Below the pieces are notes generated by a model. It saw only the letters and a program-made list of their open reading frames with translations, was not told where the DNA came from and did no database searches. Positions 3,444 through 26,819 of a DNA stretch of 37,749 nt are shown here, in pieces. The translations under genes were made by a program, and so were the position numbers. Each line of letters opens with the position of its first letter. The first letter of the stretch is position 1. Origin of the DNA: Gemmatimonadales bacterium (GTDB lineage: Bacteria; Gemmatimonadota; Gemmatimonadetes; Gemmatimonadales; GWC2-71-9); NCBI GenBank assembly GCA_041599395.1, contig JBFHWR010000002.1:1-37749 (forward strand), written 5' to 3'.

Positions 3444-4412
3444 TCAGAGCTCGAACCGCTGACCTTCCTGGGCCACGCTGAAACCACGACGCTCGAGATC
3501 CCGGCGCTCGTTTCCCTCTCGGTCGAACGCGACATTCGTGTTATTCAAGTGGGTGAAGATCACCCGGCGCCCCTCCGCAACGGCCCCTTCGAGCCGCCGC
3601 ATCGTATCGGGAATGAGGGGGTGACGGATGTCTTCCTGACGGCGTCCAGGGACCTCAGCGGCATAATAGAACGATCCGTCCAGCAAGGCGACGTCCGCTT
3701 CGCCGACCACGGTTTCGATCCGCCGATCCCACGTCTCCCAGCGATCGATGTCCGGCAGGTACAAGAGTGTCCGGGATGGTCCGCGAAACAGGAAGCCCAC
3801 CGTATCGGAAAACTCGTCACGGTGGGGTACCGGCAACGGGCGAACGGACATGAGGTCATCTACCCGGTGCCATCGGTCCGTGGACAGGGGACGGAGGTCG
3901 AGCCGGCCCTCCTCGACGAGCAGGCTCCACGGGCCGTTGTCCGATAAGAACGACGCCATCTGTTCGGTGCAATAGCACGGCGTCGGGGCCATGGCGAGCG
4001 CTTCCCGTCCGAGCATTGCGAGCCCGAGATAATGACCGATATGCGCATGGGTGAGAAAGATCCCGTCAAAGGGGCGACGGGCGCGCGCGCGCTCCCGAAA
4101 ATTCGGCTCGCGGATGAGATCGATTTGCCGAGTGATGTCGGGCGTCGCGTCCACCAGGTAGTACCGTTGCACGCTGGGTTGGATGAGCGCAAGCGAAGCG
4201 ATGTAATGCGCGCTCATGCGGGCGCGTTCGCAGCGAGGGCTGTAACAGCCCGTTTGCGGAAGGCCCCCATCCTGCGCCGATCCGAGAACGAGCGCGTAGA
4301 GCTCCGACCGACCCAGGCGCCCTCGCCTCCACCATCCCACATCCGTTGCTGCTCCTGCTACCGCACCGAGGAAGTGCCGCCGCGAGAGGGTGTGAATCCG
4401 CTGCCCGGTCAT
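3444..4412 (-). CDS. MBL-fold metallo-hydrolase, PqqB-like, with twin-arginine signal
   Basis: It has a Tat-like SRRHFLGAVAG and the PqqB-like LGSAQDGGLPQ.GC stretch. The metal motif is FLTHAHIGHYLG, followed by ..LLDGSFY.. and H.L... The start lies 3 nt after the rhomboid stop. Confidence 0.8.
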   Translation of the reverse strand: MTGQRIHTLSRRHFLGAVAGAATDVGWWRRGRLGRSELYALVLGSAQDGGLPQTGCYSPRCERARMSAHYIASLALIQPSVQRYYLVDATPDITRQIDLIREPNFRERARARRPFDGIFLTHAHIGHYLGLAMLGREALAMAPTPCYCTEQMASFLSDNGPWSLLVEEGRLDLRPLSTDRWHRVDDLMSVRPLPVPHRDEFSDTVGFLFRGPSRTLLYLPDIDRWETWDRRIETVVGEADVALLDGSFYYAAEVPGRRQEDIRHPLIPDTMRRLEGAVAEGRRVIFTHLNNTNVAFDREGNERRDLERRGFSVAQEGQRFEL

Positions 4413-4415
4413 CGG

Positions 4416-5174
4416 TCAGCGGGCAGCAAATCGGTCGAGGAAGGCGCGCTCCTCCGGCGTCAGGCTCTCGACGCCGCTCGAACTGATCTTGTCCAGCATG
4501 CGGTCGAGCTCCGCCTGGTTGACTTCGTGCAGCCGGTCCCGCTCGATGGCCCGCCATCGCTGCACATCGGTTTGCGCACTGGTTCCGTGGGGCCGCGTTC
4601 CGAGTGCCGCCTTTCTCTTGAATCTCCGGGCCGGTGAGGAGTAGTCGAGCCACCGAAGGTACAGGAAGCCTCCCAAGAACCCGCCGAGGTGGGCAAAGTG
4701 CGCAATGTTGCCGCCGCCCGAGAACCCCATCCATAACGAGAGCCCCGTCAGGATGATGACCAACCACCGGGCTTCCACCGGCAGGACGCCCCAGATGTAG
4801 AGTACTGCGCGCGGCCAGTAGTACGCGAACCCCAACATGACTCCGAACACGGCGCCTGACGCCCCCACGATTCGCACAAACGGCGTGACGATCGACAGCA
4901 GAGCGCCCGCAATACCGCTCACGAAGTACAGCATGAGAAAACGGCGTCCTCCCAAGCGCGCCTCCAGCCGTGGACCGAGGAAGTACAGACCGAGCATGTT
5001 GAATAACAGATGGCCCGGACCCGCGTGCAAGAACATATACGTGACGATTGTCCACGGTCGCTGCAGCGCGAAGACGGGCACGAATGAGAGTGGATACGCC
5101 AGCTGTGGCGCCAGCATGATGATAAAGAACACGGCGACGTTGGCGATCAGGAGACGAGTGACCCAAGGCGTCAC
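4416..5174 (-). CDS. rhomboid family intramembrane serine protease with C-terminal soluble extension
   Basis: There are multiple TM helices. Motifs seen are HAGPGHLLFNM, the catalytic GASGAVFG and the downstream HLGGFLGG. It starts at GTG 5174. Confidence 0.9.
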   Translation of the reverse strand: MTPWVTRLLIANVAVFFIIMLAPQLAYPLSFVPVFALQRPWTIVTYMFLHAGPGHLLFNMLGLYFLGPRLEARLGGRRFLMLYFVSGIAGALLSIVTPFVRIVGASGAVFGVMLGFAYYWPRAVLYIWGVLPVEARWLVIILTGLSLWMGFSGGGNIAHFAHLGGFLGGFLYLRWLDYSSPARRFKRKAALGTRPHGTSAQTDVQRWRAIERDRLHEVNQAELDRMLDKISSSGVESLTPEERAFLDRFAAR

Positions 5175-5190
5175 GAGAGTCGGCTCACCG

Positions 5191-5793
5191 TCACACGCGC
5201 TCGTCGGGCGACTGTTCCCAGGCTTCCACGGATGGCTCGTCGTCTATCCCCAACCCGTCCGCCACGCGATTGATGTAATTGAAATACCCCACGATCTGTG
5301 TTGCATCGTGAATCCCCACGTCGTCAAAACCGTGCCGCCGGAGCGTTGCAATGTGGTTGACGGTCATCGACTCCGGAAACCTCGTCAGTCGTTCGGCGTA
5401 TTCACAGAGCGCGACGTTTGCGTCGCTCAATCCCGCGCTGCGCCAGTCGGTCGAAATATGACGAACGAATCGATCGATGGCGTTCTCATCGGTAACGCCA
5501 AAATCTCGTGCGACCTCGGCCCGGAGGTCGTGCGCGTGGGCGCGGATTCAGTACACACAGCGGTTCGCAGCCGACACAACAACCGCGAGCATCTCGCGTT
5601 GTCCGCGGCTCAAGGGAGAATCCCCGTGCATGAGCACGCCGTAGAATCGGATCGAGGCCGAGAGCGCGCGTGGGTTCATGCTCATCAAGCTCACGATGTT
5701 CCAGATCCGACCGGCCCGCTTCACCGCAGCATCGTATTGCTGCTTCAGCAATCCAGTGGCCGCACGGTGTGGAATGACCTCAATCCACGACAT
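5191..5793 (-). CDS. AhpD/carboxymuconolactone-decarboxylase-family 'peroxidase-related enzyme' with an in-frame TGA at the redox motif (candidate selenocysteine; otherwise a nonsense pseudogene)
   Basis: Track ORFs 5548..5817 and 5191..5430 are in the same frame (5547-5430 = 117 nt). No other stop lies between them. Read-through gives MSWIEVIPH...SAANRCVY[TGA]IRAHAHDLRAEV...LSDANVALCEYAERLT...YFNYINRVADGLGI, 200 codons. The TGA (5550..5548) replaces the second Cys of the family N-x-C-x-Y-C-x3-H motif. Start is ATG 5793, after GGAGGG. Confidence 0.75.
5511..5530 (-). promoter_or_regulatory. SECIS-like hairpin downstream of the in-frame UGA
   Basis: The mRNA-sense sequence is CGACCUC-CGGGCC-GAGGUCG, a perfect 7-bp stem with a 6-nt G-rich loop. 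The stem starts 17 nt after the UGA and the apical loop starts 24 nt after it. Confidence 0.4.
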
Positions 5794-5947
5794 CTTGGCT
5801 AACCCTCCGCTGCGCATCGCTTTCGGGAACCCCCATACGGTACTATCATGTTAAACACTCCTGTTCACACGCGCAAAGACGAGAGACCGTTGCAGATCAT
5901 GCGCCTGCGGAACCGGCACCAATGGAAGAGAGAGGGGTACGCCAACC

Positions 5948-8785
5948 GTGGAACGGATGAGAGGCATTGCAAAGCTGATTCAAACCGCCGCGTCGGCGGT
6001 TGTTGGTGTCGCGCTGGTGTGCACCACCGCGTACGGACAGGACCCCAGCGCCCTCGACCATCCCCTCCCGGTAGATCCCGACGTGACGATCGGGGCGTTG
6101 CCCAACGGGCTCCGCTACTACATCCGCGTCAATAAGCGGCCGGAACAGCGGGCAGAACTTCGCCTGGTCGTCAACGCCGGCTCGGTCTTGGAAGATGATG
6201 ACCAGCGCGGGCTGGCTCACTTTGTGGAGCACATGGCCTTCAACGGCACCGAGAATTTCCCCGAAGACGATCTCGTGGACTACCTCGAGCGCATTGGCAT
6301 GCGCTTTGGTCCCGACATCAATGCGTTCACCAGCTTTGATGAGACCGTCTACATGCTCCACGTGCCCACCGACTCCGTCGACATCCTGCGCACGGCATTT
6401 CGGATCCTCGATGATTGGGCGCACCGGCAAACCTTTGATCCGATCGAGATCGACAAAGAGCGGGGCGTCGTCATCGAGGAATGGCGACTCGGGCGCGGGG
6501 CCGAGGCGCGGATCATCGATCAGCAGTTTCCCGTCCTGTTCAAGAATTCGCGGTACGCAGACCGTCTGCCAATCGGAACCAAAGAAACGCTGGAGACCGC
6601 ACCGCGAGAGGCGCTCCTGCGGTACTATCGCGATTGGTATCGACCCGATTTGATGGCCGTCGTGGCGGTGGGCGACTTCGACGCCGCTTGGGTGGAAGAG
6701 GTCATCCGCAGCCAGTTTAGCGCGATTGCCGCTGTGCGGACGCCGCGGGAACGGACGCTGTTCCCGGTGCCGGACCATGAGGAGACGTTGTTTGGGCTGG
6801 CAACCGACCCGGAAGCGACGTCGACGGACGTTCACTTGTACTACAAACAACCACTGCGCGCGTTTCGTACCGTGGGTGCGTACCGCCAGAGCATCGTGGA
6901 ACGCCTCTACAACAGTATGCTCAACGCGCGCCTGTTCGAACTCACCCAACAAGCCGACCCGCCGTTCCTCTTCGGATCGTCCGGCCAAGGGCGCTTCATA
7001 CGGTCCAAAGAAGTCTACATGTTGGGAGCAGCCGTGACCGACACGGGCATCACCGAGGGGCTGGCCGCCGTCCTCACCGAAGCCGAGCGGGTGGCGCGTC
7101 ATGGCTTCACGGTGAGCGAGCTCGAGCGACACAAGCTCCAGCTCGTGCGCCGGATGGAGCGCGCGTACGCCGAACGGGAGAAAACGAACTCCGCCTCGTA
7201 TGCCTTTGAGTACACCCAGGCGTTTCTCGAAGACGACCCCATCCCAGGTATTGGCGCCGAGTACGAACTGACCAGGCGCTTTGCGCCGACGATTGCGGTG
7301 GGCGAAGTCAATCAGCTCGCGAGAGAGTGGCTCACGAATCGGAATCGCGTGATCTTGGTTGGCGCGCCGGACAAAGACGGGGTCAGCCTTCCCACCCAAG
7401 ACTCCCTTCTCCGGGTGTTCCAGCATGTCATGAGCCTCGAGATCGAGCCGTACACCGATTTCGCGAGCACCACGCCGCTGGTGACGCAACCACCGGTGCC
7501 AGGTGCGGTGACCAGTGAACTGGAGGTCGCTGGCGTGGGTGTCACTGTCTGGCAACTCTCGAACGGCGCGCGGGTGATCGTGAAGCCGACCGACTTCAAA
7601 GACGACGAGGTGCTCCTCACCGCCTTCAGTCCCGGTGGCACCTCGCTCGCCGCCGACGCCGATTTCGTTGCGGCTGCCACGGCATCGACAGTCATCGACA
7701 TCGGCGGATTGGCGGATCTGAGCCTGGTTGACCTGCAGAAGCAACTCGCCGGCAAGGTCGTGCGGGTGTCCCCCACCATCGGGTCGCTGTACGAGGGGTT
7801 CGGCGGCTCAGCCTCTCCCAAGGATCTCGAAACCCTCTTCCAGCTCATCTACCTCTATGTCATCGCGCCGCGTCGGGACGAGGCGGCGTTCGCGTCTTTC
7901 AAAACGCGAATCCAGGCCTTTCTCGCCAATCGCAGTGCCGACCCAATGGCGGCTTTTCAGGACACGTTGAGCGCGGTGCTGTCGCAGCACCATTTTCGTG
8001 CCCGACCAAGTACACCGGAACTCTACGACGAGATGGACCTGGACAAGTCCCTCTCGTTCTATCGCGAGCGATTTGCAGATCTCAGCGACTTCACGTTTGT
8101 GTTGGTGGGCGCCGTCGAGCCGGCGGCAGTGCGGCCGCTGGTCGAGACGTACATCGCGGGCCTACCGTCCCTCAATCGGGAAGAGCGGTATCGGGATGTG
8201 GGCCTCAGGCCCCCAGCCGGTGTCGTCGAGAGAATCGTGCGGCGTGGTGTCGAGCCACAGAGTCAGACGCAAATCGTGTTCACCGGTTCCGCCCCGTACA
8301 GCGCGGTCGAAGAATATGTCCTCGAAACCTTGGCCTCGGTGTTGGAAATCAGGCTCCGAGAAAAGCTGCGTGAGGACCTGGGTGGCACCTACGGGGTGAA
8401 TGTGAGCGCCACGTTGAACCGAGAACCCATCGAGGACTATGCAATACGGTTGAGCTTCGGGGCCGACCCGGAACGATTGGAGGAGCTGGTGAGAGTCGTT
8501 TTCGACGAGATCGACCGGCTGAAACAGCCTGGTCCACTGGAGCAGCTTGCCAAGGTCACCGAAATGCAGCGCCGGGAACTCGAGACGAATCTCCGGGTGA
8601 ACAACTATTGGCTGAACAAGCTCGCGACAGCAAGCAGGGCAGGTGTCGACCTCCGCACCGTCCTCGACGTCGAGACGTACATCGCCGACGTGACGCCCGA
8701 CATGGTGCGAGCGGCCGCGGTGCAGTATTTCCAGACAGACAACTACGTCCGCGTGTCGCTCTATCCGGAAGCAACCGGGCGCTAG
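5948..8785 (+). CDS. M16 family (pitrilysin/insulinase-like) zinc peptidase, double-length, secreted
   Basis: The inverted zinc motif HxxEH is present (GLAHFVEHMAFNGT). Two peptidase_M16 plus M16_C-like halves give 945 aa. The N-terminal signal is IAKLIQTAASAVVGVALVCTTAYGQ. Start is GTG 5948 or ATG 5957. Confidence 0.9.
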   Translation: MERMRGIAKLIQTAASAVVGVALVCTTAYGQDPSALDHPLPVDPDVTIGALPNGLRYYIRVNKRPEQRAELRLVVNAGSVLEDDDQRGLAHFVEHMAFNGTENFPEDDLVDYLERIGMRFGPDINAFTSFDETVYMLHVPTDSVDILRTAFRILDDWAHRQTFDPIEIDKERGVVIEEWRLGRGAEARIIDQQFPVLFKNSRYADRLPIGTKETLETAPREALLRYYRDWYRPDLMAVVAVGDFDAAWVEEVIRSQFSAIAAVRTPRERTLFPVPDHEETLFGLATDPEATSTDVHLYYKQPLRAFRTVGAYRQSIVERLYNSMLNARLFELTQQADPPFLFGSSGQGRFIRSKEVYMLGAAVTDTGITEGLAAVLTEAERVARHGFTVSELERHKLQLVRRMERAYAEREKTNSASYAFEYTQAFLEDDPIPGIGAEYELTRRFAPTIAVGEVNQLAREWLTNRNRVILVGAPDKDGVSLPTQDSLLRVFQHVMSLEIEPYTDFASTTPLVTQPPVPGAVTSELEVAGVGVTVWQLSNGARVIVKPTDFKDDEVLLTAFSPGGTSLAADADFVAAATASTVIDIGGLADLSLVDLQKQLAGKVVRVSPTIGSLYEGFGGSASPKDLETLFQLIYLYVIAPRRDEAAFASFKTRIQAFLANRSADPMAAFQDTLSAVLSQHHFRARPSTPELYDEMDLDKSLSFYRERFADLSDFTFVLVGAVEPAAVRPLVETYIAGLPSLNREERYRDVGLRPPAGVVERIVRRGVEPQSQTQIVFTGSAPYSAVEEYVLETLASVLEIRLREKLREDLGGTYGVNVSATLNREPIEDYAIRLSFGADPERLEELVRVVFDEIDRLKQPGPLEQLAKVTEMQRRELETNLRVNNYWLNKLATASRAGVDLRTVLDVETYIADVTPDMVRAAAVQYFQTDNYVRVSLYPEATGR

Positions 8786-23307: not shown

Positions 23308-25323
<2,016 letters not shown>

Positions 25324-25462
25324 TCAAGGTGAGTGGATCTAACTGATTGTGCGACAGCGGGTTATGACAGGGCTGCGCCTCCCCTCAGCGTGAGCACCCC
25401 GGGTGACGGGGAAATGGGGTCATCGACGTGCAGGTCCGCGCTCTCGCTGTGGTCGCATCCTC

Positions 25463-25756
25463 TCATTCTGCGGTCCACACGATCCGCGTGATGCGCTTGC
25501 CGCGTTTGTGGAGCTGGCGAAGGATGGTTGGAGACATGAGCTGGAGCTCCTGCATCCAAGCGGCCGACTTCACCGCGACAAACAGAATACCGCCGGCCGA
25601 GACCGAACGCGGTGTGGACACCTGGGCGATACTGGGGCCGACCAGTGACTCCCATTCGGCGACGACACTCGCTTGCGCCAGGCGTCGGCCGATCCCCGTC
25701 CGGTGGCAATAGGCCTCCAGGGCCTCGCCCACGCGTGTCGCTCGCTTATCGCTCAA
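25463..25756 (-). CDS. DUF721 domain-containing protein (DciA-like, classically between recF and gyrB)
   Basis: The sequence is ..VGEALEAY....GIGRRLAQASVVAEWESLVGP.IA..S.P.S...G.L.V.V.S.AW.QEL..M....L..L.. Start is uncertain. TTG 25756 follows GGAGGA with 4 nt spacing. The longest ORF (25849) would overlap recF by 104 nt. Confidence 0.75.
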   Translation of the reverse strand: MSDKRATRVGEALEAYCHRTGIGRRLAQASVVAEWESLVGPSIAQVSTPRSVSAGGILFVAVKSAAWMQELQLMSPTILRQLHKRGKRITRIVWTAE

Positions 25757-26819
25757 TTGATCCTCCAACGATGCGCCATCTGGGGCGGTCAAACAGCGGT
25801 GCCGGCACTTCTTCGTCGCGAGGCGCCGTGATGATGACCTGTCCGCCAAGCGATTCGTCGATAAGCGTGAGCAACCGCTGCTGCCGCTCCTGGTCCAGCT
25901 CCGCGAAGACGTCGTCGAAGAGCGCGACCGGCTGTGTACCGAGCGACGCCGTCAACGTCTCCGCTTCGAGCAGTCTGAGGGCAATGGCGCCTGTGCGCTG
26001 CTGCCCGGCGGAGCCGAACCGTCTGAGTTCTCGCTCGTCGAGCGACAGCGCGACATCGTCCCGGTGGGGTCCCCGAGTCGTCACGCCGACTCGCAAGTCC
26101 CGGTCCAATACGTCAGACATCGCCTGCTCAATCTCATGCGCCCCGCCCTCCGGCGTCCAGTGCCGAAACCGGTAGGTCATGGCTGCGATCCCGCGCTCCC
26201 CGAGCGCGCCGCAGAGTTCGGTGTATCGCGTCGCCCACCGCGTGATCCAGCGGCACCTGGCAGCCGCCACCGCATGACCGGCAGCCGCCACCGGCCGGTC
26301 AAATGCGCGTGCCTCGTCCGGTCGGCCGCGTCGCAGGGCGGCGTTTCGCTGCCTGAGGGCGCGCCGAAAGTCCGCCAAGCTCGACAGATAGCCTTCGTCC
26401 GACAGCGACAACAGGACGTCGAGATATCGTCGCCGGCCTGCGGGCCCCCCCTCGACAATTATCCGGTCGGCCGGTGACAGCACGACGGCGACCAGCATGC
26501 CGACCGCGTCCACCAATCGCTTCCGCTCAGTCCCGTCCACCGTAATTTTCTTGCGCCGACCGGCAGGCTCGTAGCCGGCGGTGATGCGGTGCGCCGTACT
26601 CGTCCCCGCCAGAAAGAAACCGGCGTCGCCAAAGCGGACGAGCTCCCGGTCGCGCGCCCCTCGCATCGAGCGGAACAGGACGAGGTAGTAGATCGCTTCG
26701 AGGAGATTGGTTTTTCCCTGTCCGTTTGCCCCAATGACGATCGCTCCCGAGGATGGAATCTCCAGATCGAGGGAGGCGAGGTTGCGGAAATTGCGCGCCG
26801 TGAGGGTGGTGAGTTCCAC
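25746..26819 (-). CDS. recF: DNA replication and repair protein RecF
   Basis: The N-terminus is L.ARNFRNL..L.LE with Walker A GANGQGKTNLLEAIYY. The signature-like FGSAGQQRT and Walker B LFDDVFAELD are present. It starts at GTG 26819. Confidence 0.95.
   Translation of the reverse strand: MELTTLTARNFRNLASLDLEIPSSGAIVIGANGQGKTNLLEAIYYLVLFRSMRGARDRELVRFGDAGFFLAGTSTAHRITAGYEPAGRRKKITVDGTERKRLVDAVGMLVAVVLSPADRIIVEGGPAGRRRYLDVLLSLSDEGYLSSLADFRRALRQRNAALRRGRPDEARAFDRPVAAAGHAVAAARCRWITRWATRYTELCGALGERGIAAMTYRFRHWTPEGGAHEIEQAMSDVLDRDLRVGVTTRGPHRDDVALSLDERELRRFGSAGQQRTGAIALRLLEAETLTASLGTQPVALFDDVFAELDQERQQRLLTLIDESLGGQVIITAPRDEEVPAPLFDRPRWRIVGGSIER

Follow-up and report, generated by a model that had tools for sequence, protein, structure and literature searches.

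What does a bacterial gene encode when a stop codon stands exactly where its catalytic residue is expected? The question is raised by a stretch of 37,749 nucleotides (nt) from a Gemmatimonadales bacterium (positions 1 to 37,749 of contig JBFHWR010000002.1, GenBank assembly GCA_041599395.1; hereinafter the window), which carries on its minus strand two short open reading frames (ORFs), 5548..5817 and 5191..5430. An earlier note on this DNA had proposed that the two are parts of a single gene of the AhpD/carboxymuconolactone decarboxylase (CMD) family, in which a TGA encodes selenocysteine (Sec) under the direction of a hairpin resembling a selenocysteine insertion sequence (SECIS). Our analysis supports this interpretation of the locus as a candidate selenoprotein gene: very probably, it is one gene for a TIGR01926/COG2128 AhpD-like thiol/selenol oxidoreductase, with the UGA at 5550..5548 read as Sec. 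The decisive evidence is comparative, and concerns the TGA and the hairpin that follows it.

Reading frame, protein family and redox site

Reading of the frame bore out that the two ORFs share a common frame with the TGA at 5550..5548 as the sole stop between them, and that read-through from the ATG at 5793 down to 5191 yields a protein of 200 codons. It runs from MSWIEVIP... to ...YFNYINRVADGLGI...DERV, with the context AANR-C-V-Y-TGA-IRAHAHDLR around the in-frame TGA; 118 codons lie between this TGA and the terminator, rather than the 116 counted earlier. A further in-frame ATG is available upstream at 5817; the start at 5793 is nevertheless favoured, because the N-termini of homologues at this position take the form M-[SAP]-[WYF]-I and a GGAGG stands 10 nt upstream of it (Table 1).

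For profile scoring, Cys was substituted at the TGA position. The protein thus obtained scores 125.7 bits against TIGR01926 (“peroxidase-related enzyme”), for which the curated cutoff is 81.8, and the match spans residues 2-187, corresponding to profile positions 1-177 of 178. The earlier assignment to the “peroxidase-related enzyme” branch of the CMD/AhpD family is thereby upheld. The AhpD core domain TIGR00778 and the Pfam CMD domain are also present. AhpD-like matches in the PDB (6k40, 2oyo, 2pfx, 3c1l and 2prr) have E values of 4e-25 to 1e-15, the closest being 6k40 (E = 3.9e-25, over residues 16-188); homologues at E = 4e-25 suffice to fix the fold of the predicted protein. In the PDB alignment, NRCVY-TGA pairs residue for residue with the NRCVYC of 6k40 and 2oyo, and the TGA column is also aligned to Cys in homologues with a CxxC motif (CDYC, CEYC and similar), confirming that the stop sits exactly at the second redox Cys. 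The relay residues of the protein, E67, C79, Y81, the predicted U82 and H86, have the canonical AhpD spacing.

We then compared this column among relatives. A scan of species-representative genomes (one per species) returned 594 relatives, from which the best 80 loci were taken as the comparison set; these correspond to 80 genomes and 81 gene copies, or 82 sequences once the window gene is added. The aligned column holds TGA in 81/81 homologous copies, each with an open frame of 100-125 codons beyond it, so that the relatives with TGA at the same column, for which the earlier note had advised a search, were indeed found. As labelled in the database records, the carriers belong to at least eight phyla: Latescibacterota, Chloroflexota, Gemmatimonadota, Planctomycetota, Actinomycetota, Acidobacteriota, Calditrichota and Pseudomonadota. 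E67, C79, Y81 and H86 show no variation in any of the 82 sequences, and the median pairwise identity across the 60 residues ahead of the Sec column is ~63%. Cys forms of the family exist too, with 17 among the full-length matches of a protein search.

Two observations on the comparison set may be recorded here. The Latescibacterota chromosome OZ250150.1 (L072) has two AhpD-like copies ~4.2 kb apart, near 1983 and 6244, both with the TGA and the hairpin. In two MAG (metagenome-assembled genome) contigs whose records are labelled “uncultured Klebsiella sp.” (L006 and L007), the motif and the hairpin codons match those of Roseiflexaceae copies (L004, L019-L021), and the taxonomic label looks wrong.

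The hairpin downstream of the TGA

Beginning 17 nt past the UGA, the mRNA can form a perfect 7-bp stem between CGACCUC (5530..5524) and GAGGUCG (5517..5511), closed by the 6-nt loop CGGGCC (5523..5518), which starts 24 nt from the UGA, just as the earlier note had described it. The minimum free energy (MFE) of the 20-nt hairpin is -10.5 kcal/mol. The consensus model of the bacterial SECIS (bSECIS) used by bSECISearch, as quoted in PMC13188914, calls for a loop of 3-9 nt on an upper stem of 4-16 bp, a G at loop position 1 or 2 that is usually followed by G or U, a UGA-to-loop distance of 16-37 nt, and an MFE at or below -7.5 kcal/mol. The hairpin agrees with all four of these published constraints (a 6-nt loop on a 7-bp stem, a loop G followed by G/U, 24 nt, and -10.5 kcal/mol), so that its proposed compatibility with a bacterial SECIS holds. 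Hairpins of this kind, with 7 perfect Watson-Crick pairs and SECIS-like geometry, are rare, only 18 (1.7%) of the window's 1068 TGA trinucleotides having one.

The 60 nt from the UGA onward align without gaps in all 82 sequences, and RNAalifold recovers from this alignment the same 7 pairs as those named above, with a consensus fold of -10.1 kcal/mol. Paired cells make up 98.1% in this structure; shifting the 3' partners by 1-3 columns lowers the share to 19.6-45.3%. The loop reads C-G-[G/U]-G-N-N in 82/82 sequences. Covariation among the hairpins of relatives, which had been suggested as a check, is present as compensatory changes from C-G to U-A at three pairs (in 7, 7 and 1 sequences), and the covariation score of 0.175 compares with 0.140 +/- 0.007 for shuffles, none of 500 reaching the observed value.

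Because the stem lies in the codons for Asp-Leu...Glu-Val, the choice among synonymous codons, set against the usage of the same genes elsewhere, offers the sharpest test. At the Leu site CTC is used in 81/81 cases (30% elsewhere), at the Val site a C- or T-ending codon in 74/74 (54% elsewhere), and at the Glu site GAG in 81/82 (57% elsewhere). The Arg site has CGG or CGT in 82/82 (41% elsewhere), and CGC, which accounts for 43% elsewhere, is never used. The lone GAA co-occurs with the lone TTC, and every Ile (ATY) that takes the place of Val co-occurs with GAT, pairing being kept in each case; the synonymous sites adjoining the hairpin are saturated. A true CxxC homologue (L082) is without the hairpin, with 3/7 pairs in register.

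Based on these features, we propose that the hairpin acts as a bacterial SECIS, to which SelB, the elongation factor specific for Sec, would bind together with its Sec-tRNA(Sec). SelB would then deliver Sec with the UGA in the ribosomal A site, allowing the further 118 codons to be translated. The product would hold a C79-V-Y-U82 redox centre embedded in the AhpD proton relay (Glu67, Cys79, Tyr81, Sec82 and His86). Such an enzyme probably alternates between a selenol/thiol and a selenenylsulfide form, and it would reduce either an oxidised partner (e.g., a peroxiredoxin) or a peroxide directly. Strong comparative evidence and the established biology of the family point to insertion of Sec by SelB and SECIS to give a C-x-x-U oxidoreductase; the presence of selA, selB, selC and selD in this genome, the actual insertion of Sec and the physiological substrate are what we infer from them.

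A related low-GC clade, represented by L087 (177-749), L091 (~2133) and L092 (~2243), has the loop CGGUCG, and its motifs CEY-U, CDY-U and CHY-U are followed by xxAHL[HY]DLR. In L091 and L092 the first C and the last G of the loop can pair, which leaves a GGUC tetraloop on a stem longer by one pair. This tetraloop presumably resembles the loop of the E. coli fdhF SECIS, the experimental archetype of the bacterial SECIS.

Weighing the readings of the in-frame TGA

Several points weigh against reading the TGA as a Sec codon. The genes selA, selB and selD and the tRNA-Sec were not found in the 37.7 kb window: probing it with E. coli SelA, SelB and SelD gave no match, ARAGORN detected no tRNA of any kind in it (and no tRNA-Sec in 60 related loci either), and the 30 of its ORFs that were scanned against Pfam proved to be housekeeping genes, such as gyrB, a recF-like gene, uppS, and genes for an ABC transporter and peptidases. 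In related loci totalling 0.89 Mb, a true selB (TIGR00475, 327 bits against a cutoff of 242) was found in one carrier genome (L038), whose AhpD-like gene is the only copy with the Leu-to-Phe change (TTC) and the compensatory GAG-to-GAA change in the hairpin. One selB lying next to the gene among 80 loci is compatible with chance (roughly 0.2, by a rough estimate), and it shows only that this carrier genome has Sec machinery; the Sec-decoding trait of the window organism itself is one that we infer. As to the hairpin, an 81-nt stretch containing it is not more stably folded than its shuffled versions (z = 0.23), and single-sequence folding is therefore not usable as evidence; an Rfam scan of the window matched no family. 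The 80 loci were picked as the best matches to the window protein and hence represent the Sec clade instead of the family at large, and naive probabilities for the codon choice ignore shared ancestry. Finally, the stem lies within the codons of a conserved peptide, HDLRxEV, and part of its nucleotide conservation thus comes from the protein; this last point is addressed by the evidence from wobble positions and compensatory changes.

One alternative is that the gene is a relic, i.e., a young pseudogene of a selenoprotein in an organism that has lost its Sec machinery, with translation stopping at codon 82. The absence of Sec machinery from the window would fit this, as would the lineages in which TGA has given way to TGG or AGA with the hairpin kept, such that the Sec codon of the family is sometimes lost. 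However, a window of 37.7 kb would seldom include sel genes anyway, and in it the TGA, the hairpin with all its preferred codons, the relay residues and the 118 downstream codons are all intact. We consider a relic very improbable.

The lineages with other codons at the Sec column call for some detail. Full-length database proteins with W at this column include P0001, P0003 and P0036, besides about 50 similar matches. In these three (L085, L086 and L087) the DNA has TGA, and the W results from the choice of genetic code 4 (TGA = Trp) by the gene caller on contigs of ~1 kb. The idea that every such W is a TGA read under code 4 holds for 3 of the 4 that were checked and fails for P0011, whose codon is in fact TGG. 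This genuine TGG variant, NDCSY-TGG-TQAHAHDLREEV, is found at L083:3001-3582 (ENA ERZ781359 NODE_685) and L090:2001-2579 (JGI12109J20283_10677170); its SECIS hairpin and preferred codons are intact, and it is recorded on 11 contigs of up to 199 kb. Metagenome contigs yielded no diverged clade combining TGG with the hairpin, but only an identical copy, the nearest relatives (49-52% identity) having TGA; a point mutation confined to its lineage most likely explains the variant. P0013, at L084:3001-3582 (Logan SRR8466080_13873), has AGA (Arg) at the Sec column, NRCHY-AGA-TLAHAYDLRAEV, and keeps an intact hairpin; the protein sequences alone give R in P0018 and G in P0015. Codons for W, R and G are each one base from TGA.

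It is conceivable, if very unlikely, that the TGG and AGA lineages have a tRNA-Sec whose anticodon fits UGG or AGA, and that through the kept SECIS these codons are read as Sec; Sec recoding of other sense codons has been reported (Mukai et al. 2016, to the extent that it is summarised in PMC10778597). Such reading of sense codons would concern these relatives and not the window gene, which has an ordinary UGA. In another subgroup, comprising L081:3001-3570 (P0022) and the proteins P0020-P0028, the first Cys is lost and Cys (TGC) stands at the Sec column, giving S-T-R-Y-C. L081 retains a degraded hairpin (GAC UAU ... GAG GUC), and the subgroup may be the trace of a former Sec-to-Cys conversion.

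A second alternative accepts that the UGA of the window gene is read through and has it decoded as something other than Sec: as Trp or Gly under a reassigned code, as Cys by a tRNA-Sec-like opal-suppressing tRNA(Cys), or by near-cognate read-through. The inserted amino acid cannot be told from sequence alone, and unusual suppressor tRNAs do occur in nature, including the tRNA(Cys) just named (PMC5389517). Nevertheless, TGA terminates 13 of the 19 Pfam-supported genes of the window as well as the AhpD-like gene itself, and the G+C content is 61-66%; a reassigned genetic code is excluded because TGA is the ordinary stop of most window genes. The conserved SelB-type hairpin that fits the bSECIS model, the position of the codon at a redox Cys, and the fact that the family has already been catalogued as Sec-containing likewise argue against non-Sec decoding, to which we give very little credence.

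A strain-specific nonsense mutation, or a sequencing error, in a Cys-type AhpD-like gene would require only a change from TGC or TGT, TGA being one base from each Cys codon. Yet the same TGA recurs in all 81 copies from 80 independent assemblies of at least eight phyla, and the hairpin is conserved with covariation and is missing from the true CxxC homologue. The earlier note had expected, were this explanation right, that close relatives would all carry Cys codons without a conserved hairpin; what they have is TGA throughout and the hairpin. On this comparison, mutation or error is excluded in practice, its probability being negligible.

Hardly worth more than a mention is the idea of two small genes for the subunits of a split protein: gene callers do give two ORFs and many databases list the C-terminal part as a separate protein of 110-120 amino acids, but the break coincides exactly with the catalytic residue, no ATG, GTG or TTG occurs for 39 codons past the TGA, conserved family-typical sequence resumes at the very next codon, and the supposed start “M” of homologues is merely the residue after the TGA, which makes such an arrangement implausible. 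These entries are instead what the earlier note had anticipated of standard annotation: our protein search met with dozens of “proteins” of 110-120 amino acids that start exactly one residue past the TGA column, and the gene appears in databases as such fragments or as a “hypothetical protein”.

Gene neighbourhood and comparison with known systems

The candidate selenoprotein gene is followed on the same strand by genes for a rhomboid-family protease and an MBL-fold hydrolase (Table 1), with which it may form an operon. The neighbourhood is not conserved, the rhomboid, MBL-fold, M20 and M23 neighbours not being common to the 80 related loci, and hence no partner protein can be deduced from context. 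A neighbouring M16 peptidase has 55% identity to one in the MAG of a member of the Gemmatimonadetes. Scanning of 4300..6100 for promoters and terminators gave nothing exceeding chance, and no further read-through candidates were found in the window, the remaining matches being antisense shadows or adjacent genes. Elsewhere in the window, gyrB adjoins a recF-like SMC_N gene at 23308-26819 (-). Such adjacency is typical of the dnaA-dnaN-recF-gyrB region in the vicinity of a chromosomal origin; no switch in GC skew is visible within the window.

Table 1. Features of the predicted AhpD-like selenoprotein gene, its downstream neighbours and the selB of a related locus (window coordinates unless a locus is named)
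Feature	Position	Strand	Basis or remark
AhpD-like (TIGR01926) predicted selenoprotein, complete coding sequence, 200 residues including Sec82	5191..5793	-	frame, TIGR01926, Pfam CMD, PDB 6k40
Own terminator TGA of the AhpD-like gene	5193..5191	-	
GGAGG, Shine-Dalgarno-like, 10 nt upstream of ATG 5793	5804..5808	-	read from the sequence
Glu67 codon GAG, proton-relay glutamate, 12 residues ahead of Cys79	5593..5595	-	invariant 82/82
Cys79 codon TGT, first residue of the C-x-x-U redox motif	5557..5559	-	invariant 82/82
In-frame TGA, predicted Sec82, second-Cys position of CxxC	5548..5550	-	TGA in 81/81 copies and the window; Cys in 6k40, 2oyo and Cys forms
His86 codon CAC, relay histidine of C-x-x-U-x3-H	5536..5538	-	invariant 82/82
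Predicted bacterial SECIS hairpin within the coding sequence, codons His-Asp-Leu-Arg-Ala-Glu-Val-Ala	5511..5530	-	RNAalifold, covariation, synonymous-codon restriction, MFE, bSECIS model
Rhomboid-family protease gene	4416-5174	-	starts 16 nt past the stop of the selenoprotein gene
MBL-fold hydrolase gene	3444-4412	-	directly after the rhomboid gene
selB	L038:6758-8734 (Planctomycetaceae MAG SGMAG-72, contig11)		~170 nt downstream of its AhpD-like TGA gene

Among characterised AhpD proteins, the proton relay consists of Glu118, Cys130, His132, Cys133 and His137 in M. tuberculosis AhpD, and of Glu36, Cys48, Tyr50, Cys51 and His55 in the AhpD-like P. aeruginosa PA0269 (PMC3141380). The window protein has the identical relay spacing, Glu-x11-Cys-x-(His/Tyr)-Cys-x3-His, and shares the relay Tyr with PA0269 (C-A-Y-C); it differs from both in the predicted replacement of the second Cys by Sec. 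Membership in canonical AhpD, the AhpC-reducing adaptor (TIGR00777), was rejected, the score of 22 bits being far under the cutoff of 191.95, and no ahpC or peroxiredoxin neighbour was found among the 30 window ORFs scanned against Pfam. Of the solved structures, the nearest (E = 4e-25 to 3e-19) are 6k40, named “Alkyl hydroperoxide reductase AhpD”, together with 2oyo and 2pfx (“uncharacterized peroxidase-related protein”). All three carry Cys where the window protein has its predicted Sec, and relative to 6k40 the latter has an insertion of ~10 residues (the VTDENAIDRF region). A motif of the C-x-Y-U type in an AhpD-related domain, as in the window protein, also typifies NF041238 “AhpD_rel_CFYUT”, an alkylhydroperoxidase-related (seleno)protein (the Sargasso “hypothetical protein 1”). 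However, members of that family have ~357 residues with an extra N-terminal half, unlike the 200 residues here, and membership was again rejected: the window protein reaches 59.6 bits where the cutoff is 175, in a weak match to the C-terminal half only (profile positions 152-341).

AhpD-like selenoproteins (COG2128, CxxU) entered the literature as a new family in Sargasso Sea data, where they numbered 27 sequences and a SECIS was predicted for them (Zhang, Fomenko and Gladyshev 2005, PMC1088965). In the Global Ocean Sampling (GOS) study of 2008, “AhpD-like 1” was, with 299 sequences, the fourth most abundant prokaryotic selenoprotein family (PMC2398784), and members have also been reported from a few sequenced genomes (PMC1794560). 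A 2026 review lists an “AhpD-like protein, TIGR01926, CxxU” (PMC13188914), and the family serves as the worked example of the BSepDB paper (PMC13326102). Routine mis-annotation of these genes as truncated or missing runs through this literature (PMC1088965, PMC2398784, PMC1794560, PMC13188914 and PMC13326102). The window gene is a further member of this selenoprotein family, known since 2005, and adds no new biology.

What it does bear upon is annotation. The locus should be annotated as one selenoprotein of 200 residues (Sec82), and not as two fragments or a pseudogene, and the presence of the gene predicts that its host is fully equipped for Sec decoding (selA, selB, selC and selD). Moreover, the signature UGA-N17-YGAYCUC-CGKGNN-GAGRUYR in the codons for H-D-L-R-x-E-V could rescue hundreds of split “hypothetical proteins” from MAGs of Chloroflexota, Latescibacterota, Gemmatimonadota and other phyla. 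With the bSECIS consensus the window gene has in common an in-frame hairpin directly past the UGA, and the same signature, with its 6-nt loop, is the form that the SECIS specifically takes in the family as sampled here.

Compared with the known AhpD-like selenoproteins, the window gene falls in the same family of hidden Markov models, has the same CxxU motif with its predicted Sec at the second Cys, and is subject to the same mis-annotation as fragments. It also has the same kind of predicted SECIS directly past the UGA with a G in a small apical loop. There is no essential difference between them; the window copy lies in a chromosome of 62-64% G+C, with genes for a rhomboid and an M16 peptidase beside it. 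Marine metagenomes were the source of the first description of the family, whereas the members considered here come mostly from MAGs of Chloroflexota, Latescibacterota, Gemmatimonadota and other phyla.

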